16,767 bases of DNA from a virus (taxonomy: Duplodnaviria; Heunggongvirae; Uroviricota; Caudoviricetes), in the IMG/VR virus record IMGVR_UViG_2877263951_000002. One strand, written 5' to 3'. Position numbers and translations under genes: made by a program. Below the pieces are notes generated by a model. The model saw only the letters and a program-made list of their open reading frames with translations. It searched no databases and was not told the DNA's origin. How positions within the stretch are numbered: position 1 is the first letter of the stretch; every line of letters begins with the position of its first letter. Positions 3,255 through 16,767 of the stretch are shown here, piece by piece.

Positions 3255-3764
3255 TTATACGGCTTTTTTCGCATCTTGTGGTTCCAACAAAGGAGCTACA
3301 GGCTCTTCCTGTTTATGAACACCATACATTGACAAAATCTCTTGGCGAGTTTCTGGAGGTAATTTATGCAGCGCCAAAGCTGTTTGTAGTGTTTGGCGAT
3401 CAATACCCAGCGTTGCCAATAGGGTGTCAACGGAGATGGAGGGGCGTTCTTGCATTAATCCGGAAAGCCCATATTTAGCCATGTTTAGCTCTATCTCTCG
3501 GACTTCATTTTCTCCTAGTTTATTGATTAACAGGGAGAACATTTTCAATGTATCAGCATTCATTTCTTCGATAGCAATTTTTTGCATAGCCGGTATTGCC
3601 GGGATATATTCAACCCCAGGCCCGCGACGCCCTTCTTGTGAACGCTTCGGCCATCCTTCTTTCTTTGCTCGTTTATGCACCCCCTGTATTGTCCCTGGCA
3701 TTCCATCCAGTTCAGTAATTTGTTTGGGTGTCATCCACTGGTTTATCTCATTTGCGCTTTTCAT
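3255..3764 (-). CDS. c: Mu/D108-type repressor (Repc-like)
   Basis: ATG 3762-3764, stop TAA 3255-3257, 169 aa. The C-terminal region (...RQEILSMYGVHKQEEPVAPLLEPQDAKKAV) closely resembles the Mu repressor C-terminus (...KEILSKYGIHEQES...KKAV) and the N-terminus has the MPG..GVH.RA...GW.KR winged-helix motif shared with MuA and Mu Repc. Divergent from Mu in detail, so D108-like by inference. Confidence 0.8.
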   Translation of the reverse strand: MKSANEINQWMTPKQITELDGMPGTIQGVHKRAKKEGWPKRSQEGRRGPGVEYIPAIPAMQKIAIEEMNADTLKMFSLLINKLGENEVREIELNMAKYGLSGLMQERPSISVDTLLATLGIDRQTLQTALALHKLPPETRQEILSMYGVHKQEEPVAPLLEPQDAKKAV

Positions 3765-4172: not shown

Positions 4173-5781
4173 ATGCATGGGTTTATCTGGTTTACCTGGT
4201 TCATTAATGGGGGTTCACAAAAGAGCTCAGAGAGAAGGATGGCTCAAGAGAAGAAGAGAAGGAATTAGAGGGGTTGCTTACGAATACCATATATCTTCTC
4301 TTCCTAACATTGCTCGAGCTGAAGTTTTGCTCCAACAAGGAAAATTTAAAACCAGTCAGGGATGTTTTGAAATCGCCCGCCCCACGCTGGAAGCTCATGA
4401 TTATGATCGTGAGGCACTATGGAGCAAATGGGATAAAGCCAGCGATTCCCAGCGCAGCCTGGCTGAAAAATGGTTGCCCTCAATTCAGGCCACAGACGAA
4501 ATGCTGAACCAGGGGATTTCAACGAAAACGGCTTTTGCGACCGTTGCAGGGCATTACCAGGTCAGCGCATCCACTTTGCGGGACAAGTATTACCAGGTAC
4601 AGAAGTTTGCGAAGCCTGACTGGGCGGCTGCACTTGTTGATGGACGTGGAGCATCCCGTCGCAATGTTCACAAAAGTGAATTTGACGAGGATGCCTGGCA
4701 GTTTCTGATTGCAGATTATCTGCGACCGGAAAAACCCGCCTTCCGCAAATGTTATGAGCGTCTGGAACTGGCAGTCCGCGAGCATGGCTGGAGTATTCCC
4801 TCCCGTGCCACGGCCTTTCGCCGGATTCAGCAACTGGACGAGGCAATGGTTGTTGCCTGTCGTGAAGGTGAACATGCACTGATGCATCTGATACCGGCAC
4901 AGCAGCGAACTGTGGAACACCTGGACGCCATGCAGTGGATCAACGGCGACGGTTATCTGCATAACGTCTTTGTACGCTGGTTTAACGGTGATGTGATCCG
5001 TCCGAAAACATGGTTCTGGCAGGATGTGAAAACCCGAAAAATTCTGGGCTGGCGCTGCGATGTGAGCGAGAACATTGATTCAATTCGCCTCTCGTTCATG
5101 GATGTTGTGACTCGCTACAGTATCCCGGAGGATTTTCACATCACCATTGATAACACCCGTGGTGCTGCGAATAAATGGCTGACGGGAGGCGCGCCCAATC
5201 GCTACCGCTTTAAGGTAAAAGAGGACGATCCAAAAGGACTGTTTTTACTGATGGGTGCGAAAATGCACTGGACAAGCGTTGTTGCCGGTAAAGGCTGGGG
5301 CCAGGCAAAACCTGTTGAACGTGCTTTCGGTGTTGGTGGGCTTGAGGAATACGTTGATAAGCATCCGGCACTGGCTGGCGCATATACGGGGCCAAATCCG
5401 CAGGCAAAACCTGATAACTATGGCGACCACGCTGTTGATGCAGAGCTGTTTCTGAAAACCTTTGCCGAAGGTGTGGCGATGTTCAATGCCAGAACAGGCC
5501 GTGAAACAGAAATGTGCGGGGGCAAACTCTCGTTTGATGATGTTTTCGAGCGTGAATACGCCAGAACGATTGTGCGTAAGCCAACCGAAGAACAAAAACG
5601 GATGCTGTTACTGCCTGCCGAGGCGGTGAACGTTTCACGCAAAGGCGAGTTTACGCTTAAAGTTGGCGGCTCCCTTAAAGGCGCGAAAAACGTTTATTAC
5701 AACATGGCATTAATGAATGCCGGAGTGAAAAAAGTTGTGGTCAGATTTGATCCACAGCAGTTACACAGCACGGTTTATTGA
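4147..5781 (+). pseudogene. A: Mu-type transposase A, 3'-truncated (544 of about 663 codons); stop codon supplied by IS600 terminus
   Basis: ATG 4147 with AAGGGA 6-7 nt upstream; protein near-identical to recalled MuA over residues about 60-544 (...[12 protein letters not shown]) and divergent in the first about 60 residues. After codon 544 the sequence becomes the IS600 end (TGA at 5779-5781). Confidence 0.9.
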
Positions 5782-5842
5782 GATAGCCTGAGTTTAACGG
5801 ACACTCCTTCCTGAAATAGAATGGCATCAGAAGGAGCTAATA

Positions 5843-6145
5843 ATGAGCAGAAAAACCCGACGTTACTCTAAAGAGTTCAAAGCCGAAGCTGTCAGAACGG
5901 TTCTTGAAAATCAACTTTCGATCAGTGAAGACGCTTCCCGATTATTCCTTCCTGAAGGCACTTTAGGACAATGGGTTACCGCCGCCAGAAAAGGGCTCGG
6001 TACTCCTGGTTCCCGCACGCTGGCTGAACTGGAATCTGAAATTCTGCAACTGCGTAAGGCGTTAAATGAAGCTCGCCTTGAGCGAGATATATTAAAAAAA
6101 GCAACAGCGTATTTTGCACAGGAGTCGCTGAAAAATACGCGTTAA
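5843..6145 (+). CDS. IS600 OrfA (transposase N-terminal HTH subunit)
   Basis: ATG 5843 with GGAG 8 nt upstream; 100 aa MSRKTRRYSKEFKAEAV...; contains the slippery run at 6094-6100. Confidence 0.85.
   Translation: MSRKTRRYSKEFKAEAVRTVLENQLSISEDASRLFLPEGTLGQWVTAARKGLGTPGSRTLAELESEILQLRKALNEARLERDILKKATAYFAQESLKNTR
6094..6100 (+). other. programmed -1 ribosomal frameshift heptamer A_AAA_AAA(G) of IS600 copy 1
   Basis: Zero-frame codons AAA AAA at 6095-6100 in orfA; the -1 frame is open from 6100 through the orfB ATG at 6181, as expected for OrfAB fusion transposase of IS3-family elements. Confidence 0.6.
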
Positions 6146-6180
6146 TCGAACAATGGCGACAACAATTTCCCATTGAAGCG

Positions 6181-6999
6181 ATGTGTCAGGTATTTGGTGT
6201 ATCCAGGAGCGGTTATTACAACTGGGTACAGCATGAACCCTCAGACAGAAAACAAAGTGATGAACGGCTAAAACTGGAGATTAAGGTGGCACATATCCGC
6301 ACTCGCGAAACATATGGAACCCGGCGGCTCCAGACGGAGCTGGCAGAGAATGGCATCATCGTTGGTCGTGACCGACTGGCATGTCTTCGTAAGGAGCTGA
6401 GGCTACGCTGTAAGCAGAAACGCAAGTTCAGAGCGACTACGAACCCGAACCACAATCTGCCAGTTGCGCCAAATCTGCTGAACCAGACGTTCGCTCCTAC
6501 AGCACCAAATCAGGTCTGGGTGGCGGACCTGACGTATGTTGCCACACAGGAGGGATGGTTGTACCTCGCTGGCATCAAAGATGTTTATACGTGCGAAATT
6601 GTCGGCTACGCCATGGGAGAGCGCATGACAAAAGAGCTGACAGGTAAAGCCCTGTTTATGGCGCTCAGGAGCCAGCGCCCACCTGCCGGGCTAATCCACC
6701 ACTCTGATCGAGGTTCACAGTACTGCGCATACGATTACCGGGTCATACAGGAGCAGTCTGGTCTGAAAACATCAATGTCGCGTAAAGGTAACTGTTACGA
6801 CAACGCTCCGATGGAAAGCTTCTGGGGAACGCTGAAAAATGAGAGCCTGAGCCACTATCGTTTTAATAACCGGGATGAAGCCATCTCAGTAATACGGGAA
6901 TACATTGAGATTTTCTACAATCGTCAGCGTCGTCACTCTCGTCTGGGGAATATCTCCCCGGCAGCCTTCAGGGAAAAATATCATCAGATGGCTGCTTAA
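6181..6999 (+). CDS. IS600 OrfB (DDE catalytic domain; normally expressed as OrfAB fusion)
   Basis: 272-aa ORF in the -1 frame relative to orfA; contains typical IS3-family DDE region (...WVADLTYV..., ...HSDRGSQY..., ...NCYDNAPMESFWGTLK...). Confidence 0.85.
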   Translation: MCQVFGVSRSGYYNWVQHEPSDRKQSDERLKLEIKVAHIRTRETYGTRRLQTELAENGIIVGRDRLACLRKELRLRCKQKRKFRATTNPNHNLPVAPNLLNQTFAPTAPNQVWVADLTYVATQEGWLYLAGIKDVYTCEIVGYAMGERMTKELTGKALFMALRSQRPPAGLIHHSDRGSQYCAYDYRVIQEQSGLKTSMSRKGNCYDNAPMESFWGTLKNESLSHYRFNNRDEAISVIREYIEIFYNRQRRHSRLGNISPAAFREKYHQMAA

Positions 7000-7042
7000 A
7001 AAAAGAACAAATGGTAGTGTCCGCTATTGCCAGTACACCTCA

Positions 7043-7282: not shown

Positions 7283-8224
7283 TTAAATGCCATCAACGTA
7301 CGAAATGGTTTCTTTGTACACTGGCTCGACTGCACCCAGCTTGCCGTAGTAAGTGACGATCTGATACAGACCGCGATACTGCACCGGCACGCTCTGAAGC
7401 GGAACCAGCGGGTAGCGGACGTATTTTTTATCGTTGGTGTACGCAACCATGCGATCCTTATTCCCCACACCACGGCCTTTCAGCCATTTAACCGCGCGGA
7501 TATTCAGCGGAACACCGTTCTGGTGATAGCTGATGGTGTTGGTCTGAAGGTTCGTCAACAGGGACTGGTTACCTGCAGATGAAACGATGATGCTGGACAA
7601 CAGAGCAAACTGCTCAGGCGGGATCAGCAAATCACGCGGAACCACAGAGTAACCAGAAGCGGCCCACGCATCAGACAGCACCTGGTTAATGCTTGCGCGG
7701 ATTTCGTCCGGTGTTGAGGTTGCCCACGTTTTGGCAGCGTTGTTGACAGGCACGCCGTCCAGGGTAACAAGGCCTTTCAGGTTTAATGCGGAATCGCCAA
7801 CATATACCTGTTCATCGTTATCCATCTGCCATTTCAGTTGCATACCGTCATACTTCTGCGTATCAATCGGGCGGCCGACCTGCTGAGCAGCCTGCAATTC
7901 TATGACCGTCCAGCCAAGTTCCATCCCCCACAGGTTCAGCGGGTTACCGGATTTGCCGATATCCACGTTCACGCCAGCAATAGCGGTTGAGTCTTTGCCT
8001 ACCCAGTTTTTTCCATTCGGATTTGCGCCAGTACCCGCAGCGGCGAAGCTGGTATTCGTCCAGCTGGAAATGTCATCTGCGATGGAGGCGTCTTCACGCA
8101 GTTGAATATCGCGGCTCCAGGTGTACCCCACCAGTGGCAGGTTCAGCGTCTGGTCGAGTCTCTCCAGCTCCCCGATGAGAAAGGCACCAGAGCTGTCAAC
8201 GGTTGCCTGATCAAAAGTAATCAT
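7283..8224 (-). CDS. phage major capsid protein (DUF2184-like family by recall)
   Basis: ATG 8222-8224 with AAGGAA 7-8 nt upstream, stop TAA 7283-7285, 313 aa; position after scaffold-like and small genes in a head module; sequence recalled as a prophage major capsid family. Family assignment unverified. Confidence 0.65.
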   Translation of the reverse strand: MITFDQATVDSSGAFLIGELERLDQTLNLPLVGYTWSRDIQLREDASIADDISSWTNTSFAAAGTGANPNGKNWVGKDSTAIAGVNVDIGKSGNPLNLWGMELGWTVIELQAAQQVGRPIDTQKYDGMQLKWQMDNDEQVYVGDSALNLKGLVTLDGVPVNNAAKTWATSTPDEIRASINQVLSDAWAASGYSVVPRDLLIPPEQFALLSSIIVSSAGNQSLLTNLQTNTISYHQNGVPLNIRAVKWLKGRGVGNKDRMVAYTNDKKYVRYPLVPLQSVPVQYRGLYQIVTYYGKLGAVEPVYKETISYVDGI

Positions 8225-8368: not shown

Positions 8369-8725
8369 TCAGTGGAGATCGCCTTTTTTGATAGTGCTGG
8401 CATCAAAATCAGAACCGAGATTAACGGTCACGTAGCCACGCTTCATGGCGTCGCCCGGGAAGTTCTTGCCTGTTCCCACCTGGCGAACCATGTCCGGCTG
8501 CGACGTGGTCGGATAAGGGCGCACGTAGATCCCCTTCACCTTGTCTGCGGTATCACCATCTGCCAGCGGCACGAAAAAACCGTCATCATCGTATTTACCA
8601 GCCAGGCCATAGGCAGCGAAGGCGTTATCGGATTTAAGGACCACCGGTTCGACGGTTAAGTCCTGCGGGCGAGAGACAGCCCCGGCAATGCCAACAGGCA
8701 TCCGGTACAGAAATACATTATTCAT
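8369..8725 (-). CDS. small phage head-module protein (possible decoration/structural protein)
   Basis: ATG 8723-8725 with AAGGG upstream, stop TGA 8369-8371, 118 aa; lies between scaffold-like gene and capsid gene. Function inferred only from position. Confidence 0.4.
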   Translation of the reverse strand: MNNVFLYRMPVGIAGAVSRPQDLTVEPVVLKSDNAFAAYGLAGKYDDDGFFVPLADGDTADKVKGIYVRPYPTTSQPDMVRQVGTGKNFPGDAMKRGYVTVNLGSDFDASTIKKGDLH

Positions 8726-9172: not shown

Positions 9173-9236
9173 TGAGGTAGCCTGAGTTTAACGGACACTC
9201 CTTCCTGAAATAGAATGGCATCAGAAGGAGCTAATA

Positions 9237-9539
9237 ATGAGCAGAAAAACCCAACGTTACTCTAAAGAGTTCAAAGCCGAAGCTGTCAGAACGGTTCTTG
9301 AAAATCAACTTTCGATCAGTGAAGGCGCTTCCCGATTATCTCTTCCTGAAGGCACTTTAGGACAATGGGTTACCGCCGCCAGAAAAGGGCTCGGTACTCC
9401 TGGTTCCCGCACGCTGGCTGAACTGGAATCTGAAATTCTGCAACTGCGTAAGGCGTTAAATGAAGCTCGCCTTGAGCGAGATATATTAAAAAAAGCAACA
9501 GCGTATTTTGCACAGGAGTCGCTGAAAAATACGCGTTAA
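9237..9539 (+). CDS. IS600 OrfA
   Basis: 100 aa; differs from copy 1 OrfA at 3 residues (Q6, G30, S35 versus R, D, F). Confidence 0.85.
   Translation: MSRKTQRYSKEFKAEAVRTVLENQLSISEGASRLSLPEGTLGQWVTAARKGLGTPGSRTLAELESEILQLRKALNEARLERDILKKATAYFAQESLKNTR
9488..9494 (+). other. programmed -1 frameshift heptamer A_AAA_AAA(G) of IS600 copy 2
   Basis: Same position as in copy 1 (offset 3394). Confidence 0.6.
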
Positions 9540-9574
9540 TCGAACAATGGCGACAACAATTTCCTATTGAAGCG

Positions 9575-10393
9575 ATGTGTCAGGTATTTGGTGTATCCAG
9601 GAGCGGTTATTACAACTGGGTACAGCATGAACCCTCAGACAGAAAACAAAGTGATGAGCGGCTAAAACTGGAGATTAAGGTGGCACATATCCGCACTCGC
9701 GAAACATATGGAACCCGGCGGCTCCAGACGGAGCTGGCAGAGAATGGCATCATCGTTGGTCGTGACCGACTGGCACGTCTTCGTAAGGAGCTGAGGCTAC
9801 GCTGTAAGCAGAAACGCAAGTTCAGAGCGACTACGAACCCGAACCACAATCTGCCAGTTGCGCCAAATCTGCTGAACCAGACGTTCGCTCCTACAGCACC
9901 AAATCAGGTCTGGGTGGCGGACCTGACGTATGTTGCCACACAGGAGGGATGGTTGTACCTCGCTGGCATCAAAGATGTTTATACGTGCGAAATTGTCGGC
10001 TACGCCATGGGAGAGCGCATGACAAAAGAGCTGACAGGTAAAGCCCTGTTTATGGCGCTCAGGAGCCAGCGCCCACCTGCCGGGCTAATCCACCACTCTG
10101 ATCGAGGTTCACAGTACTGCGCATACGATTACCGGGTCATACAGGAGCAGTTTGGTCTGAAAACATCAATGTCGCGTAAAGGTAACTGTTACGACAACGC
10201 TCCGATGGAAAGCTTCTGGGGAACGCTGAAAAATGAGAGCCTGAGCCACTATCGTTTTAATAACCGGGATGAAGCCATCTCAGTAATACGGGAATACATT
10301 GAGATTTTCTACAATCGTCAGCGTCGTCACTCTCGTCTGGGGAATATCTCCCCGGCAGCCTTCAGGGAAAAATATCATCAGATGGCTGCTTAA
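9575..10393 (+). CDS. IS600 OrfB
   Basis: 272 aa; differs from copy 1 OrfB at 2 residues (R versus C; F versus S). Confidence 0.85.
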   Translation: MCQVFGVSRSGYYNWVQHEPSDRKQSDERLKLEIKVAHIRTRETYGTRRLQTELAENGIIVGRDRLARLRKELRLRCKQKRKFRATTNPNHNLPVAPNLLNQTFAPTAPNQVWVADLTYVATQEGWLYLAGIKDVYTCEIVGYAMGERMTKELTGKALFMALRSQRPPAGLIHHSDRGSQYCAYDYRVIQEQFGLKTSMSRKGNCYDNAPMESFWGTLKNESLSHYRFNNRDEAISVIREYIEIFYNRQRRHSRLGNISPAAFREKYHQMAA

Positions 10394-10436
10394 AAAAAGA
10401 ACAAATGGTAGTGTCCGCTATTGCCAGTACACCTCA

Positions 10437-11216
10437 GTCATCATCACTGTCGCCGGTTGGATCTCCGCCCATCTCTGGTGCTTTGTCCGGTAGTGGTTGC
10501 TGCGGGGACAGGTTGATGTTGAGATTAACGCCCTGCGGCAAATCCCCCTCATCTCCTGTAACCGATGCGGGAGCCGACTCCACCAGTTCGTTCATGGTGT
10601 CGGCATCTCCTGTCTTGATGGCCGCACGCATGCGGTTCCACCAGTTTTTCTTTTGATTTGCCATTGTGTCTCTGTCTCCAATTGCACAACGATTTCCGGC
10701 TCTGCCTTTAGGGACAAGAGCCACATGGTTTCCGGTAATATCGACCTGCTCGGCTTTACCTGGCTCGGTCTGCTCGTACTCCGCGTCATAGCCGCACGAC
10801 ACTTCGCGCAGGCCATCTTCGATAAGCTGAATGGCGCTTTCGTCTTTGACGATAAGGTCAGCCAGCATCAAATCAGACTGCTCACCCGTCCCGCGCCGGA
10901 CATTCTGGAGGTGCCCGACAGCAAGCACTTTCCAGTTCTCGGGATTTACCAGCCGCACATTCCCGTTTTCATCTTCAGGATGCAGGATCGTGATGCTCAT
11001 CCCTTCGAATGAGGCAAGCGTGGCCGGATGGAATACCTGCTCAGGAGAACGCGTGACGACTATTTCAACGAACTTATCGGGTTTCAGTTTTGGCAGGTCA
11101 TCAGCACCATAGAGCTGCTTACCTGTTCGTCCTATCGGCACGTCTTTGCACAGCAACGAGCCGTCAGCCAGGCGGTATCGGGTTTCCCCGAGCCTGGTCT
11201 CAAAAAAGTATTTCAT
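10437..11216 (-). pseudogene. 5' part of phage scaffold/maturation-like gene (DUF2213-like by recall) interrupted by IS600 copy 2
   Basis: ATG 11214-11216; 260 codons ending ...PTGDSDDD, where the last D codon (GAC) is the target duplication and the stop TGA (10434-10436) is the IS600 terminus. Confidence 0.6.
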
Positions 11217-11219
11217 GGG

Positions 11220-12002
11220 TTATGCTGCCCTTTTCATTGCGAATGGAACGCGAACAAACACGATCTCTTTATAGCAGCGGCAGTTTGGCAGCTCGCCCGC
11301 GTGGCCGGTCATGCCGTCCAAAGTTGGAGGTGAATCCCAGCGGACGAATTTACCTTTCATGTGATCGTGGGAATCTCGGACATCGCCATCATCGGCTGTA
11401 CGCCAAATATAACCATCCGAGCCAATAGCTATCGCTCGGGCCATATCCAGCGCGCCCGTTGCTCTTCCCAGTTCCGTTCGGGCAATCAGATCGGCCCTAG
11501 ACTTAGCAACATCGCCGGTAGATGCAATCTCTTTAGCAAACTGCTCCGCCCGACCACCGGTGACAACAGCCTCTATCGCTTTGTTCTGGATGTCGTACAC
11601 CCTGTCTGCGGCCTCGAGAGGCAGAGATTTGATGTACTTGACCTGTTCGGCGATGATGGATTGCATCACCTGGCCCACAGGAGCGCTTTCCACAAGATTG
11701 CGGAGCTCGCGACTGATGTTCTTGCTGTGTTGCCGCCAAACTTTCTCGTTCTGCCGGGTTAGGTCCGCAGTAAAGTTTTCCGCGACCTTTGTCGCCCAGG
11801 GGGTGATGATTTCACTGTAACGCTCCAGCGCCGCAATAATTTCCGTGATACTGTCATTTGAACCATCGTAGCGACCATTTACGATGTCTCCGACCGCCCT
11901 CGCTATCCTGCGTAGGCTGGTTCGATACCGGATTTCCGCCTGACGGCTCCTGCGGTTCGTCATCAGGTTCGCCGATGCCGGGCGGCGCTTCATCTTCGGC
12001 AT
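11220..12002 (-). CDS. phage head morphogenesis protein (Mu F / SPP1 gp7-like minor head protein)
   Basis: ATG 12000-12002 (alternative ATGs at 11993 and 11963), stop TAA 11220-11222, 260 aa; C-terminal region with ...HAGELPNCRCY... typical of the Mu F-like family; lies directly after the portal gene. Start uncertain; overlaps portal 3' end by up to 149 nt. Confidence 0.65.
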   Translation of the reverse strand: MPKMKRRPASANLMTNRRSRQAEIRYRTSLRRIARAVGDIVNGRYDGSNDSITEIIAALERYSEIITPWATKVAENFTADLTRQNEKVWRQHSKNISRELRNLVESAPVGQVMQSIIAEQVKYIKSLPLEAADRVYDIQNKAIEAVVTGGRAEQFAKEIASTGDVAKSRADLIARTELGRATGALDMARAIAIGSDGYIWRTADDGDVRDSHDHMKGKFVRWDSPPTLDGMTGHAGELPNCRCYKEIVFVRVPFAMKRAA

Positions 12003-13320
12003 TCTCGATGTCCTCGTTGGTAATGGATGCCCCTATGCCGGTTACGTCAGAATTTTCTCGCAAATCAGTCATAGCGGCTTTCAGTGTCATCAGACCATCA
12101 CCCAGCGCCGTACTGATTGCGTTGGTGGTGTTTAACGCCACCGTTGAGCGATCGACATCAGACATTTGCCAGAGCGGGTTAAACTCAAACGTGAAATCGT
12201 CCGGCAGCGGCTTGCCAAGTTCCGAACGATGCATGATGTCCAGTATCCGCCGCACCGGAAGACGTAAACGCCTCTCCTGCAACGAACTGATGCGATCGTA
12301 ATAGTTGGCAAGGTCTGCATCACCGGTAGAAAATCCTTTCGGGGACTGTCCGAACAACCGCACCAGTGGGATACCAACAGCGCCACTAATCTGTTCTGCA
12401 AACTGCGAAAGGATGTCATCCAGACCACTGAAGCTGTACTGATGGGTTTCAAACTTATCCCGCGAGTCCATGAGCGTCATGCCTTCATTACTCTGGAACT
12501 GTCGAATCAGGTCGATATTCTTCAGCAACGCTTCATACGCAGGACCACCAAGTGCGATAAGCTCGCGTAGCTTCTCCACGCTGTAGGTACGCAAATGCGC
12601 CTTGTAGACCAGCTGCGCCGCGCCGACAGTAGCGCTGTCGAACGCGGTAAGACGATCCCAGATACGCTCTACAACCGACATTCCCCATTCGTTCTCGGTC
12701 ATCTTCTGCTGAAATGGCAACGTGACGCCATCAAAGCGAATCAGGCGACTGTGATGAATGCGCCAGGCAGGAATTCCCGTTGCTGTGGTCACCACATCGT
12801 AAAACTCAGGTTTACCCAGGTCCGGCCCCATATCTTTAATGCGGCGGGTCAGTGCCGGGTCGACCATCCAGCGGTCGAGCGGGAGAATCCCCTTAAACTT
12901 GCCCTTACCGATGGTTTCGGGTCGCAGCGGGGTCATTGGTGCCTGCCCCTCAATCATGATGAAACCCACCGCGCCGCCGTAGAGGCGCGACCATTTCAGC
13001 ACGTCATTCAGCGCATCCCAGATTTGCAACTCATCCAGTTGTGATTCGAGAATGCCACGATCTTTTGCATCAATTTCCGAAGTGATGCGAATGCCTTTGC
13101 GGGTCATATCATCCGGGATAGCATCGACTGCTTCGCCGATGATCCAGGATGAACGATAGGACCATTCCACCAGCATGCGGTTACGACTGGTGAAATTAGC
13201 CCGGTAGGTGGATGCTGAGTGCTGGTTAGGTGTCTGCATCCCTACTCGGGCAATAAAATTCTCATAACCATCAGCTGTGGCCTGCACAGTTCGCCGCAGG
13301 GCTTGTTTGTTTCGTGCCAT
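11854..13320 (-). CDS. phage portal protein (DUF1073-like by recall)
   Basis: ATG 13318-13320 overlapping the TerL stop (ATGA), stop TGA 11854-11856, 488 aa with acidic C-terminal tail; position between TerL and head morphogenesis gene. Confidence 0.7.
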   Translation of the reverse strand: MARNKQALRRTVQATADGYENFIARVGMQTPNQHSASTYRANFTSRNRMLVEWSYRSSWIIGEAVDAIPDDMTRKGIRITSEIDAKDRGILESQLDELQIWDALNDVLKWSRLYGGAVGFIMIEGQAPMTPLRPETIGKGKFKGILPLDRWMVDPALTRRIKDMGPDLGKPEFYDVVTTATGIPAWRIHHSRLIRFDGVTLPFQQKMTENEWGMSVVERIWDRLTAFDSATVGAAQLVYKAHLRTYSVEKLRELIALGGPAYEALLKNIDLIRQFQSNEGMTLMDSRDKFETHQYSFSGLDDILSQFAEQISGAVGIPLVRLFGQSPKGFSTGDADLANYYDRISSLQERRLRLPVRRILDIMHRSELGKPLPDDFTFEFNPLWQMSDVDRSTVALNTTNAISTALGDGLMTLKAAMTDLRENSDVTGIGASITNEDIENAEDEAPPGIGEPDDEPQEPSGGNPVSNQPTQDSEGGRRHRKWSLRWFK

Positions 13321-14053
13321 CAGGCCTGTCTCCCCAGCTGTTCCCAGATATCCAGCGATGTATCGATTGGCGCGAAGGCCATAATGAATGCATCAGCAAC
13401 GTTTGGTGACGGTATCTCGCGTTTTGCGAGGTCTTTTTTACTTTCGACCATCACACGTCCGTTACGGTCGAAATCACGATGAGGTGTTGTCAGTTCCAGT
13501 TTCAGCTTTTCAAGCAACGGACAACGAGAATCTATGCTGATCAGCTCATCCACAGGATACTGTTCTCCGTTGTTAATGGCGTTAAACGTATTTCTGAAAC
13601 GGTCAGCCACCATGCCTGAGCCTTAAGATTTGCGAAAAAGTCTTTGTTGGGGATGCCGTTGTACTCGTCATCTGGCTCATGCACACCAGCACCGGCGTTA
13701 AACCTCTGGTAATTCACACGTCGCGCGTATGCGTTCTCGCTCTTCCGGTCAGCGTTAATTTCAGAGAATTTAGCACCGGCAGACGCACCAACACCGATAG
13801 AGTCGTAAACAATATCTGCTTCACGCTCCAGCGCCGCCTGATAAGTACGCTGGCAGCTCTTCAGTAATTCATCTTCTTTGGCCTTCCATTCGTCGGCCCA
13901 GAAAACAACGGATCCGTGACGGTAAACGTTAGCGCACTTATCTGTACCACTGTCAGCCACGTCAAAGCCAATACGCTTTCTTCCACTGGGTTCGAAATTT
14001 AACGTTTTGTGCGCATCCACTGCGGCTTCTATCCAAGACAGTTTGATGATTGC
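13320..14053 (-). pseudogene. terminase large subunit, 3' (nuclease-domain) part; separated from its 5' part by IS2 and carrying a 1-bp frameshift near 13604-13612
   Basis: Two overlapping minus-strand frames: 14053-13544 (...NLKAQAWW LTVSEIR... stop 13541-13543) and 13622-13323 (...VADRFRNTFNAINNGEQYP...RVMVESKKDLAKREIPSPNVADAFIMAF..., stop TGA 13320-13322). Together they resemble a single TerL C-terminus. Confidence 0.7.
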
Positions 14054-14064
14054 TGGATTTGCCC

Positions 14065-14970
14065 CTATATTTCCAGACATCTGTTATCACTTAACCCATT
14101 ACAAGCCCGCTGCCGCAGATATTCCCGTGGCGAGCGATAACCCAGCGCACTATGCGGATGCCATTCGTTATAATGCTCGAACGCCTCTGCAAGGTTCTTT
14201 GCTGCCGTTAACCCGTCTGGTTTGGGCATGATACTGATGTAGTCACGCTTTATCGTTTTCACGAAGCTCTATGCTATTCCGTTACTCTCCGGACTCCGCA
14301 CCGCCGTGTTCTTCGGTTCAAGTCCCAACATCCGGGCGAACTGGCGTGTTTCATTAGCCCGGTAGCATGAACCATTATCCGTCAGCCACTCCACTGGAGA
14401 CGACGGAAGATCGTTGCCGAAGCGGCGTTCCACCGCTCCCAGCATGACGTCCTGTACTGTTTCACTGTTGAAGCCGCCGGTAGTCACCGCCCAGTGCAGT
14501 GCCTCACGATCACAGCAGTCCAGCGCGAACGTGACACGCAGTCTCTCTCCGTTATCACAGCAGAACTCGAACCCGTCAGAGCACCATCGCTGATTGCTTT
14601 CTTTCACGGCCACTCTGCCTGTATGTGCCCGTTTCGATGGCGGTACAGCAGGTTTTCGCTCAAGCAACAGCGCATTCTGGCGCATGAGCCGGTAAACACG
14701 TTTGGCATTGATCGCAGGCATACCATCAAGTTCTGCCTGTCTGCGAAGCAGCGCCCATACCCGACGATAACCATACGTGGGCAGCTCTCCGATAACATGG
14801 TGTATACGGAGAAGCACATCCGTATCATCAGTGTGACGACTGCGGCGGCCATCCATCCAGTCATCGGTTCGTCTGAGAATGACGTGCAACTGCGCACGCG
14901 ACACCCGGAGACAACGGCTGACTAAGCTTACTCCCCATCCCCGGGCAATAAGGGCGCGTGCGCTATCCAC
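14065..14970 (-). pseudogene. insD: IS2 insD (OrfB, DDE transposase domain) with in-frame TAG at 14269-14271
   Basis: GTG at 14968-14970 (the -1 frame entry point), frame open to TAG at 14269-14271 (233 codons), then the same frame continues for 67 more InsD-like codons to TAG at 14065-14067 (...[19 protein letters not shown]...NRCLEI). Recalled canonical InsD has Glu at this codon. Confidence 0.8.
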
Positions 14971-15293
14971 TTTTTTGCCCGTCCATATTCAACGGCTTCT
15001 TTGAGGAGTTCATTTTCCATCGTTTTCTTGCCGAGCAGGCGCTGGAGTTCTTTAATCTGCTTCATGGCGGCAGCAAGTTCAGAGGCAGGAACAACCTGTT
15101 CTCCGGCGGCCACAGCAGTAAGACTTCCTTCCTGGTATTGCTTACGCCAGAGAAATAACTGGCTGGCTGCTACACCATGTTGCCGGGCAACGAGGGAGAC
15201 CGTCATCCCCGGTTCAAAGCTCTGCTGAACAATTGCGATCTTTTCCTGTGTGGTACGCCGTCTGCGTTTCTCCGGCCCTAAGACATCAATCAT
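14928..15293 (-). CDS. insC: IS2 InsC (OrfA, HTH subunit)
   Basis: ATG 15291-15293, stop TAA 14928-14930, 121 aa [26 protein letters not shown]...; the 15 extra N-terminal residues in the ORF track are not used. Slippery heptamer A_AAA_AAG on minus strand at 14970-14976. Confidence 0.88.
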
Positions 15294-15384
15294 CTGTTCT
15301 CCAATGACTAGTCTAAAAACTAGTATTAAGACTATCACTTAAATAAGTGATACTGGTTGTCTGGAGATTCAGGGGGCCAGTCTA

Positions 15385-16079
15385 ATTGCCGCATCATCAT
15401 CAGACTCCGGAACGCCCTCATACACATGTTTAAAACCATCCGGATCACGGCGTCGCGCCGCGTCGATAACCTTAAGCATGGTGTCAGACAGAAACGGATT
15501 TTCGTCATAGTTAATTTTGCGGATGAGAGTGCCTTCGGGCGGATCAACAACGAAGTTGCGCCAGACGAAATCAGTAACAAGTCCGGGGTTGAATATGAAC
15601 CAGCATTCCGAACCCTCTTTACGGATCGTTGGCTCCAGAATTTTCCACTGGTATTCCGTCAGTGCGTGGGCTTCTTCCAGCCACAACATATCGATCCCCT
15701 CCAGTGACTTAATTTCTTCGATGTTGCGCCATAATCCATAAAAAACAAATTCCGAGCCAGTAACCCGGTTAATGATTTTGTTGTTCAGAATACGGAAACG
15801 GTGCCGCAGACCAAACCTGTCTATCTGAATTTTGAGCAGGGTATACACCGACTCTTCGATTTTATTCTGGATCTGACGGGCACAACAAAAACGCAGGGTG
15901 TATTTATTCGACAGAAATATGGCAATGCCAGCGGCATCCCATGATTTTGACGATGACCGACCACCATAAAGCACTTTGTTACGTGCCCGCATAGTCCAGA
16001 AACTACGTAAAGCCGGATTCAGCGTCGGTTTGGATGTCAGAGTAGAAGTCATTGAGGTCACGCTCTCCATTGCCATCAT
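15385..16079 (-). pseudogene. terminase large subunit, 5' (ATPase-domain) part, interrupted by IS2
   Basis: Frame open from candidate ATGs at 16091/16079/16076/16070/16052 (16079 chosen: AGGT 5 nt upstream) down to the IS2 boundary; contains a Walker A-like motif (VLYGGRSSSKS). The frame continues in phase into 14053 after removing IS2 and one copy of ATTGC. Start is uncertain; the TTG at 16160 in the ORF track is not used. Confidence 0.65.
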
Positions 16080-16767
16080 CAATACCTGCATCACGGCGAA
16101 GACGATCAGCCTCCAGAGACACCTTATCAGTGGCGGCCTTGCGGTAGGCTGTATCAGCAAATATTTTTCCTACCGTCGCAAGCGTGCCAACGATGGACTC
16201 AATACGAACTGTATTGCGCATCATTGCTTTCTCGGCGGCGCTGATATTTTCAATCAGCATCTTCCTTTCCTGGTCCCCATTAGCATCTTCCAGCGACACC
16301 AACCACCGACCAATATTCTCTGCAGCGACAAGGTTGTTAGCACGAAGGCGAAATAATTCGTCCTCGAGCGTCAACGCTTTAGCGTCCTCTATCACCTCAT
16401 CTTTGAGCAGAAGGCGACGGGCATAACCACCGTGTTTTAATGCCTGCTGGTTACCGGGTTGGAATGGGTTAGTCGGGGGATCGGTACGCATTCCGCGTAT
16501 CGGTTTCGTATCCGGTGTAGATTCTGTTTTTAGTTGCGTACTTTTTTGTGTAAGGCCAGTAATGGCAGGCTTTCTGCTGGTACGCACTTTCCTTTTTTGC
16601 GTACCATTTTTGCAAACCTGCGTACCGCCACTGCGTGCCCAATCAAGCTTTTTGGCCCTCTTCCTGATAGCCCCTTCTGTAACGCCGTATTTCTCGCCTA
16701 TATCACGGAGGCTAAGGACTCCGGCCCGGTATGCCGATTCGATGGCCTCCCAGTCCGGTTTTGCCAT
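16003..16767 (-). CDS. putative terminase small subunit (HTH DNA-binding N-terminus)
   Basis: ATG is the last three bases of the window (16765-16767), so the true start could lie further upstream; stop TAG 16003-16005; 254 aa; immediately upstream of and overlapping TerL; N-terminus (MAKPDWEAIESAYRAGVLSLRDIGEKYGVTEGAIRKRAKK) looks like an HTH. Assignment by position and weak recall. Confidence 0.5.
   Translation of the reverse strand: MAKPDWEAIESAYRAGVLSLRDIGEKYGVTEGAIRKRAKKLDWARSGGTQVCKNGTQKRKVRTSRKPAITGLTQKSTQLKTESTPDTKPIRGMRTDPPTNPFQPGNQQALKHGGYARRLLLKDEVIEDAKALTLEDELFRLRANNLVAAENIGRWLVSLEDANGDQERKMLIENISAAEKAMMRNTVRIESIVGTLATVGKIFADTAYRKAATDKVSLEADRLRRDAGIDDGNGERDLNDFYSDIQTDAESGFT

Follow-up and report, generated by a model that had tools for sequence, protein, structure and literature searches.

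We asked whether the insertion of IS2 into the terminase large subunit (TerL) gene of this prophage is what keeps it from packaging DNA. The question arose in a stretch of 16,767 nucleotides (the window; IMG/VR record IMGVR_UViG_2877263951_000002), in which the first-pass annotation had noticed the element between two copies of ATTGC, and concluded that the prophage therefore cannot package. We found that the insertion is real and that it is one of two lesions in the same gene. We are confident that the locus holds a TerL pseudogene of the PBSX/Sf6-gp2 type with two lesions, in a decaying cryptic prophage fragment of Shigella flexneri. The features of the locus are collected in Table 1.

Table 1. 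Coordinates of the TerL pieces, IS2 and neighbouring genes in the window.
Feature	Position	Strand	Description
Small-terminase-position gene	16003..16767	-	254 aa; overlaps the TerL start
TerL N-terminal fragment	15385..16052	-	native codons 1-222 plus two bases of codon 223
Target-site duplication copy, ATTGC	15385..15389		adjoins the orfA-side IS2 end (IRL)
IS2	14054..15384	-	1331 bp; same orientation as TerL
IS2 orfA	14928..15293	-	121 aa, intact
IS2 orfB	14065..14970	-	premature TAG at 14269-14271
Target-site duplication copy, ATTGC	14049..14053		adjoins the orfB-side IS2 end (IRR)
TerL middle fragment	13541..14053	-	residues 222-371, followed by 20 codons out of frame, then a stop
7-bp deletion site	13604..13610		one CAGCCAC copy; two in tandem in intact relatives
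TerL C-terminal fragment	13320..13610	-	residues 372-467, out of frame; encodes N441 and D444 (SPNVADAF)
Portal gene	11854..13320	-	488 aa, intact ORF; start overlaps the TerL stop; Phage_portal_3, E 3e-106

IS2 is inserted in the linker of the terminase gene

The element has the length, inverted repeats, 5-bp target duplication, orfA/orfB arrangement and A6G window of the IS2 (IS3 family) found in E. coli and Shigella chromosomes. Its identity to copies that carry the annotation 'IS3-like element IS2 family transposase' is 99.0-99.7%, the upper value being reached with the annotated IS2 of E. coli FDAARGOS_943 (locus L002). Its first bases are TGGATTTGCCCC and its last bases are GGGGGCCAGTCTA. 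Compared as inverted repeats, the termini (TGGATTTGCCCC and TAGACTGGCCCCC) are imperfect, with 32-nt arms at 14062-14093 and 15344-15375 that are 78% complementary. The order along the TerL coding strand is IRL, orfA, orfB, IRR.

Target duplications of 5 bp are usual for IS2. For one given pair of positions, flanks agree over 5 bp by chance with a probability of 1/1024, and it is the empty site in relatives, not the flank match alone, that settles the insertion. In the intact relative L001 this site holds a single ATTGC, and the two flanks are contiguous with an overlap of exactly 5 bases (window positions up to 14053 correspond to L001 up to 3761, and window positions from 15385 to L001 from 3757). 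The same 5-base overlap was found at the uninterrupted site of L002 and of another relative, L011. This confirms the earlier claim that IS2 lies inside TerL and is flanked by the ATTGC duplication.

Assembly often fails or goes astray at IS copies, and many deposited 222-aa 'partial' proteins, from short contigs, stop exactly at the IS2 boundary. This could indicate that the element was misplaced by assembly, or that IS2-mediated rearrangement joined flanks of different genes. However, the IS2/TerL junction is identical in many independent complete chromosomes and carries a perfect 5-bp duplication, and the flanks, contiguous in the intact relatives, are 99.6-99.7% identical to them. Owing to this recurrent junction and the contiguous flanks, we rejected both forms of the artefact, whose probability is negligible; the flanks are halves of one gene, as had been proposed.

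The TerL pseudogene lies on the minus strand, between the small-terminase-position gene and the portal gene; its strand was omitted from the first-pass annotation. The insertion follows codon 222 and falls in the linker that connects the upstream ATPase half with the downstream nuclease half. The open frame of the N-terminal fragment enters IS2 for five codons (…DDDAAIRLAP*) and ends at a stop at 15369-15371, giving a product of 227 aa. Upstream of IS2 it contains the Walker A motif GGRSSSKS (aa 30-37) and a Walker B motif at aa 122-127, which reads MLWLEE in the window and VLWLEE in the intact relative. The Pfam family Terminase_3 matches aa 24-213 (E 5e-38), and the N-terminal fragment alone scores 132.7 bits against TIGR01547. 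The middle fragment contains the nuclease aspartates D252 (GFDVAD) and D305 (YDSIGVGA). Taken mechanically, its ORF begins with an ATG that lies within the IS2 IRR (14080) and encodes 179 aa; the deposited protein is named 'putative bacteriophage protein [Shigella flexneri 2a str. 301]'.

After removal of IS2 and one ATTGC, ...VPESDDDAA joins IIKLSWIEAAVDAHK... (DDDAA/IIKLSW) in one minus-strand frame. At the junction, therefore, the two halves are in phase, as was first reported.

A 7-bp deletion is the second lesion in TerL

Further along the coding strand, the intact relatives carry GTGGCTG GTGGCTG, and the window carries one copy of this heptamer, which changes the frame by -1. The frame shifts after residue 371, and residues 372-467, including the metal-binding N441 and D444, are lost. 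Because this frameshift remains, excision of IS2 would not restore TerL. The in silico excision suggested as a check was borne out in part: the flanks join as one TerL gene, whose intact relative aligns to a solved terminase, but the frame of the excised sequence is still broken after residue 371. The frame change near 13604-13613 falls inside the interval 13320-16091 of the first-pass annotation, which missed it.

Both heptamers are retained in all matching complete E. coli genomes (41/41; a genome set without Shigella). We searched for genomes with only one lesion, i.e. the deletion without IS2, and found none among these 41. The deletion is common to all S. flexneri-type loci, that is, to all loci sharing IS2.

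TerL was repaired by excising IS2 and restoring the 7 bp. The repaired protein scores 142.8 bits against TIGR01547 (PBSX family; cutoff 105.05). Residues 10-449 of the intact 467-aa relative align with the solved large terminase 4idh (E 1.8e-78), and this alignment runs continuously across both lesion sites. The nuclease of Sf6 gp2 uses the triad D244/D296/D444 plus N441 (PMC4678813); D252, D305, N441 and D444 of the repaired TerL align with Sf6 D244, D296, N441 and D444. The Pfam family Terminase_3C scores 20.8 bits, below its cutoff of 26.7; the nuclease was therefore assigned from the alignment to solved structures.

The repaired protein shares with TerL of the Sf6 gp2 type (4idh, 5c10-5c15, and the 255-aa 'Large terminase protein' chain 8dkr) the two-domain layout, both Walker motifs (A and B) and the acidic residues of the nuclease. 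Judged from the alignment, the two are related but diverged, and not the same protein. Unlike Sf6 gp2, the gene in the window lies in three separated or out-of-frame pieces: IS2 interrupts it after codon 222 and the deletion shifts its frame after codon 371, no single continuous ORF spans both domains, and the full enzyme cannot be encoded.

TerL lies in a fragment of the parent prophage

The surviving part of the prophage extends over ~7 kb, from the TerS-like gene to the capsid gene, out of a parent of ~37 kb, and corresponds to L011 14019-21164. What L011 carries from 21165 on, namely the neck, sheath, baseplate and fibre genes and ipaHb, is missing from the window locus. A head gene of the DUF2213 family is broken by IS600; the ORFs for the portal, the MuF-like protein and the capsid remain open. 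IS600 copies flank the remnant and interrupt it, and it is joined, again through IS600, to a Mu-like prophage that is itself truncated. The locus does not have the complete set of head, neck, tail and lysis modules. The 254-aa protein in the small-terminase position had no family match in Pfam or NCBIfam.

These observations bear on whether IS2 is the sole cause of the packaging failure, in which case precise excision would restore the terminase and a packaging-competent prophage. The in-frame excision junction and the open portal, MuF-like and capsid ORFs are in its favour. But the 7-bp frameshift removes the last metal-binding residues, the tail, neck and baseplate genes (L011 beyond 21164) are gone, and DUF2213 is split, so that we regard this explanation as extremely unlikely. 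It is refuted by the excised sequence itself, which still translates as two out-of-frame pieces. The first-pass conclusion that the prophage cannot package because of IS2 is not supported in that form: excision leaves TerL frameshifted, and the genes for neck, tail, baseplate and fibres are missing. The loss of TerL is one of many lesions at this locus.

On the minus strand, no outward or hybrid promoter was predicted at the IS2 end that would read into the C-terminal TerL fragment and portal gene; this search gave two predicted promoters in total, under the shuffle mean of 2.9.

The IS2 copy carries a stop codon at a catalytic residue

OrfA is a full-length match to NF006928, 'IS2 repressor TnpA' (276 bits, cutoff 229; model positions 1-121 of 121), and the A6G programmed -1 frameshift window, GCAAAAAAGTGG, is present after orfA. 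OrfB matches positions 1-233 of 301 in NF006918, and its score of 555 bits is below the cutoff of 597 because of the truncation by the TAG.

The DDE triad of OrfAB consists of D240, D306 and E342 (PMC3219604). The premature TAG is codon 234 of orfB and codon 342 of OrfAB, so that it replaces the triad glutamate (GAG to TAG). Base 14271 is A in the window and C (GAG) at the same locus in 10 comparators (L003-L010, L012, L013). It is also C (GAG) in the separate IS2 copy of L002; the E342 stop is thus without parallel in the 11 comparator loci, and sets the window's copy apart from ordinary IS2 copies. This nonsense change is a new observation.

With a nonsense codon at E342, an active OrfAB transposase cannot be encoded by this IS2. 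From its sequence, we consider it IS2 by descent but a defective, non-autonomous copy, which could be moved at best by transposase from other copies.

A second IS2 insertion in the terminase gene of another strain

In E. coli FDAARGOS_943, a second IS2 was found in the homologous TerL gene, ~210 bp away from the position of the window's insertion and flanked by a 5-bp duplication, CCAGC. The gene is annotated as 'phage terminase large subunit, incomplete'. The two cases agree in prophage family, gene, IS2 orientation and length of the duplication. They differ in the insertion site, since CCAGC is equivalent to window 15600-15604, and the FDAARGOS_943 locus lacks the 7-bp deletion. The different site indicates an independent IS2 event. 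This second insertion is likewise a new observation.

Alternatively, the inactivation of TerL might have been selected rather than neutral. A terminase knock-out would 'ground' a prophage with useful cargo, recurrently so for the ipaH prophages of Shigella/EIEC, or the 227-aa ATPase fragment might have gained a host function, for example interference with packaging by incoming phage. The two IS2 insertions would then reflect convergence or a regional hotspot for IS2, not chance. This reading agrees with the shared orientation of the independent insertion in FDAARGOS_943, with ipaHb at the end of the intact relative prophage, and with the N-terminal ORF, whose sequence is invariant across hundreds of assemblies. 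However, with thousands of genomes rich in IS2 (as many as 41 matches per genome to an IS2-containing query, and 20 in the FDAARGOS_943 record), two hits are expected by chance, and recent clonal descent, at 2-5 SNPs in 6.3 kb, explains the invariance. Moreover, ipaH is not at the window locus, no outward promoter into the C-terminal fragment was predicted, and the neighbouring genes are visibly decaying. We thus consider selection highly unlikely, both for the grounding of the prophage and for a host function of the fragment.

Distribution of the lesions and decay of the locus

The exact 227-aa fusion ORF of TerL and IS2 was found in 924 collection blocks, named Shigella flexneri. A junction scan of genome contigs returned two loci, a count that gives no measure of prevalence since the collection is assumed to hold one genome per species. 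Intact relatives comprise 118 E. coli genomes with full-length matches, the best at 99.4% identity. The identical N-terminal ORF in very many genomes, whose loci sharing IS2 differ only by the few SNPs given above, fits clonal descent; retention by selection may also fit.

The anatomy of the locus, the empty site, both lesions, their distribution and the homology are shown by these data, and no observation contradicts the anatomy. Our preferred explanation, the two-lesion pseudogene, comprises the following events. IS2 entered after codon 222 by the usual copy-out/paste-in route of the IS3 family, leaving the ATTGC duplication. One copy of the tandem heptamer was lost, most likely by replication slippage, and with it the last metal-binding nuclease residues. 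The two lesions are independent of each other, and both were inherited clonally and are fixed in a large S. flexneri lineage. Further decay proceeded through IS600 insertions, an IS600-mediated fusion to the Mu-like remnant, and the loss of all tail genes. In the window's strain the IS2 copy itself is dead, through the nonsense change at its catalytic DDE glutamate. We infer that these events were neutral and that no function remains at the locus. The gene has a further frameshift, most of the phage is lost and hundreds of public genomes share the insertion, so the locus is a case of ordinary genome decay.

Five IS (IS1, IS2, IS4, IS600 and IS911) have expanded throughout Shigella, whose chromosomes carry 229-348 IS each, and this has caused gene loss (PMC7373316). 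The window locus resembles this IS-driven gene loss (Hawkey et al. 2020, PMC7373316) in combining lineage-shared with strain-variable insertions; the word 'prophage' has 0 occurrences in the main text of that paper. A literature search for an IS2 insertion in a prophage terminase of S. flexneri returned only unrelated papers and no description of it.

The significance of the locus beyond its correct annotation is small. It should be annotated as one TerL pseudogene with two lesions in a prophage fragment. Neither an annotation as three 'bacteriophage protein' genes nor a reading as a prophage that one IS has disabled would be correct. The locus also illustrates, in compact textbook form, how IS elements make a prophage decay step by step, here with one IS copy dying in place. 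The two shared lesions, together with the strain-specific ones (the E342 stop in IS2 and a second IS600), could serve as markers of S. flexneri lineages.

TerL carries an IS2 insertion and a second lesion

We found that the terminase large subunit gene (TerL), like the rest of its block on the minus strand, is interrupted by an IS2 element. ATTGC occurs at 14049-14053 and 15385-15389, and the 1331 bases in between (14054-15384) begin with TGGATTTGCCCC and end with ...GGGGGCCAGTCTA. The terminal inverted repeats are imperfect (14062-14093 versus 15344-15375, 32 nt, 78% complementary). orfA is a full-length match to NCBIfam 'IS2 repressor TnpA' (276 bits, cutoff 229), orfB matches 'IS2 transposase TnpB', and the A6G frameshift window was found. 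Thousands of E. coli records contain copies annotated as 'IS3-like element IS2 family transposase', and the element is 99.0-99.7% identical to these. The intact locus of E. coli FDAARGOS_944 (L001) is an empty site with a single ATTGC and contiguous flanks overlapping by exactly 5 bases. This excludes a chance match as the source of the duplication and rules out the joining of unrelated flanks. The first-pass annotation had proposed this insertion and its 5-bp duplication, and we recovered both, base for base.

When IS2 is removed together with one copy of ATTGC, ...HVYEGVPESDDDAA runs on into IIKLSWIEAAVDAHK... in a single frame. The excised sequence has full-length matches in 118 complete E. 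coli genomes, the best with 99.4% identity over a 467-aa gene annotated 'PBSX family phage terminase large subunit'. Residues 10-449 of this intact protein align with 4idh, a large terminase of solved structure ('Gene 2 protein'; E 1.8e-78), and the alignment is unbroken over the IS2 site (DAA/IIK opposite DMA/IIK), so that both flanks are halves of one TerL, as first proposed. Terminase_3 (the Pfam ATPase domain) was found at aa 24-213 (E 5e-38), and NCBIfam TIGR01547 scored 142.8 bits (cutoff 105) on TerL with IS2 excised and 7 bp restored. Walker A (aa 30) is GGRSSSKS, and Walker B (aa 122) reads MLWLEE in the window versus VLWLEE in the intact relative. Since IS2 lies after codon 222, the duplicated GCAAT being Ala222 and two bases of Ile223, it sits in the ATPase-nuclease linker.

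Relative to L001, 7 bases are missing from the window at 13604, which leaves one CAGCCAC heptamer where intact genes have CAGCCAC CAGCCAC. This deletion shifts the frame after Leu371, giving overlapping ORFs 13541-14080 and 13320-13613. The nuclease active site of Sf6 gp2 consists of D244, D296 and D444, with N441 also metal-binding (PMC4678813). By the 4idh alignment, the corresponding residues here are D252, D305, N441 and D444, of which N441 and D444 are out of frame owing to the deletion. Both heptamers are present in all 41 complete E. coli genomes matching the segment, and the deletion is present at every locus carrying TerL::IS2. Because one unit of a tandem repeat was lost, we infer replication slippage.

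The deletion rules out a single lesion with function regained on IS2 excision. The junction is in phase, as the first-pass annotation held, but the excised gene is still broken. Its statement that the prophage cannot package DNA because of IS2 was right in outcome and wrong in cause, as TerL has two lesions and no complete phage is left. Apart from the lack of a single open frame, all tests place the gene among PBSX-family, Sf6-gp2-like TerLs; it is TerL by descent and non-functional. The window TerL differs from its closest intact relative by three substitutions (13432, 15689, 15771). Of these, two change the amino acid: Ala becomes Asp within SKKALAKRE, and in GIDVLWLEE, the Walker B segment, Val becomes Met. 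The pattern is compatible with relaxed constraint, with only three changes to judge from.

The IS2 copy has lost its transposase

Window base 14271 is A, and it is C at the same locus in ten comparators (L003-L010, L012, L013) and in the independent IS2 of E. coli FDAARGOS_943 (L002). On the coding strand, this changes GAG to TAG at orfB codon 234 (14269-14271), seen in none of the 11 comparator IS2 copies examined. We checked the published numbering of the frameshift product OrfAB in the window by W237 and D240 (WCSD) and D306 (LTDNG). The stop is OrfAB codon 342, immediately past A341; E342 is the glutamate of the IS2 DDE catalytic triad (PMC3219604). The element is IS2 by all structural tests except the broken triad; it is IS2 by descent and non-functional. 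Judged from its sequence, the copy in this strain is predicted to be non-autonomous, able to make the OrfA repressor and unable to make active transposase. It could move only if other copies supplied transposase.

The insertion is old and clonally inherited

An exact copy of the 227-aa ORF formed by TerL codons 1-223 and five IS2 codons (…DDDAAIRLAP-stop) is on record in 924 public collection blocks, many of them complete chromosomes of 4.4-4.7 Mb, which rules out an assembly artefact. Sources name the ORF as Shigella flexneri, e.g. 'hypothetical protein SFy_0918 [Shigella flexneri 2003036]', and the downstream 179-aa ORF is on record as 'putative bacteriophage protein [Shigella flexneri 2a str. 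301]'. A scan for the IS2 junction returned two loci, one in S. flexneri SFBU1023 and the other in a record labelled E. coli. Six TerL::IS2 chromosomes match the window without gaps across 10437-16767, with 2-5 substitutions. Given the 924 blocks and this near-identity, the insertion is old, clonally inherited and already in public annotation, as separate 'phage protein' entries. A literature search found no paper on this TerL::IS2 insertion. All Shigella have undergone expansion of IS1, IS2, IS4, IS600 and IS911, reference chromosomes carry 229-348 IS each, and in S. flexneri many IS insertions go back to the ancestor of the species (PMC7373316).

The IS2/TerL-C junction has undergone further rearrangement at 12000-12434 of L009 (NXMF01000001.1, an S. 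flexneri-type chromosome), with an inverted partial IS2 segment and the equivalents of window 13982-14052 gone.

The window holds remnants of two prophages

Features of the window
Feature	Coordinates	Strand
pagP	1-585	-
dcuC	1048-2535	+
DpiA-like regulator, C-terminal fragment	2576-2878	-
Phage Mu left end (attL), exact sequence TGTATTGATTCACTTGAAGTACG	2918-2940	+
Mu-type repressor	3255-3764	-
MuA-type transposase, cut at 544 aa	4147-5781	+
IS600, first copy	5779-7042	+
Head-gene block	7043 onward	-
Major capsid	7283-8224	-
Cement protein	8369-8725	-
IS600, second copy (1264 bp, 3-bp duplication), splits DUF2213 head gene	9173-10436	+
MuF-like head morphogenesis protein	11220-12002	-
Portal	11854-13320	-
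TerL, broken	13320-16052	-
254-aa gene, small-terminase position, overlaps TerL start	16003-16767	-

The first IS600 links the truncated MuA-type gene to an STY1053-family gene fragment, which lies just past the capsid gene of a phage unrelated to the Mu-like one; this IS600 is the junction of two different prophage remnants. The Mu attL directly follows the DpiA-like fragment, and the repressor and truncated MuA come next. dpiA, beside dcuC and pagP, was apparently the insertion site of the Mu-like phage. The 254-aa protein has no match in Pfam or NCBIfam, and its RefSeq label is 'hypothetical protein'.

A near-complete relative of the parent prophage, ~37 kb long and with intact TerL, was found in E. 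coli FDAARGOS_944 (L011, NZ_CP065613.1 4290000-4335000). It adjoins pgl and ybhD, in a genome that is labelled E. coli, and spans early genes to tail fibres; ipaHb, a T3SS effector gene, lies directly past the tail-fibre genes. This suggests that the window remnant derives from an ipaH-carrying phage. The window retains only L011 14019-21164; by this comparison, all genes from the neck to the fibres, sheath and baseplate included, are absent at its locus.

Neighbouring S. flexneri loci also have IS-broken lysis and early regions, in some cases broken as well by a reverse transcriptase gene (Pfam RVT_1 and GIIM). The second IS600 is absent in L003-L010 and marks a sub-lineage of 107 collection blocks. 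In L016, the capsid and cement genes between the two IS600 copies are lost, apparently through recombination between them.

Neutral decay as the probable explanation of the locus

The locus is best explained, very probably, by a cryptic prophage decaying neutrally and in steps within a host-restricted pathogen rich in IS elements. IS2 would have inserted into the TerL linker by copy-out/paste-in. The other steps would comprise a deletion by slippage within the nuclease domain and IS600 insertions with IS600-mediated rearrangements, and mutation of the IS2 copy itself would be the last. Nothing at the TerL::IS2 locus departs from known biology, and IS expansion in Shigella as a general phenomenon is well described (PMC7373316).

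Selection, either for 'grounding' of an ipaH-type phage or for a new role of the ATPase fragment, is unlikely, with weak hints in its favour. As one such hint, FDAARGOS_943 carries its independent IS2 (L002 8370-9700, NZ_CP065615.1) in the homologous TerL, in the same orientation, with the duplication CCAGC at a site equivalent to window 15600-15604, ~210 bp from the ATTGC site. That TerL keeps both heptamers, and its IS2 transposase is annotated as intact. Two TerL insertions among thousands of IS2-rich genomes are no more than chance would give.
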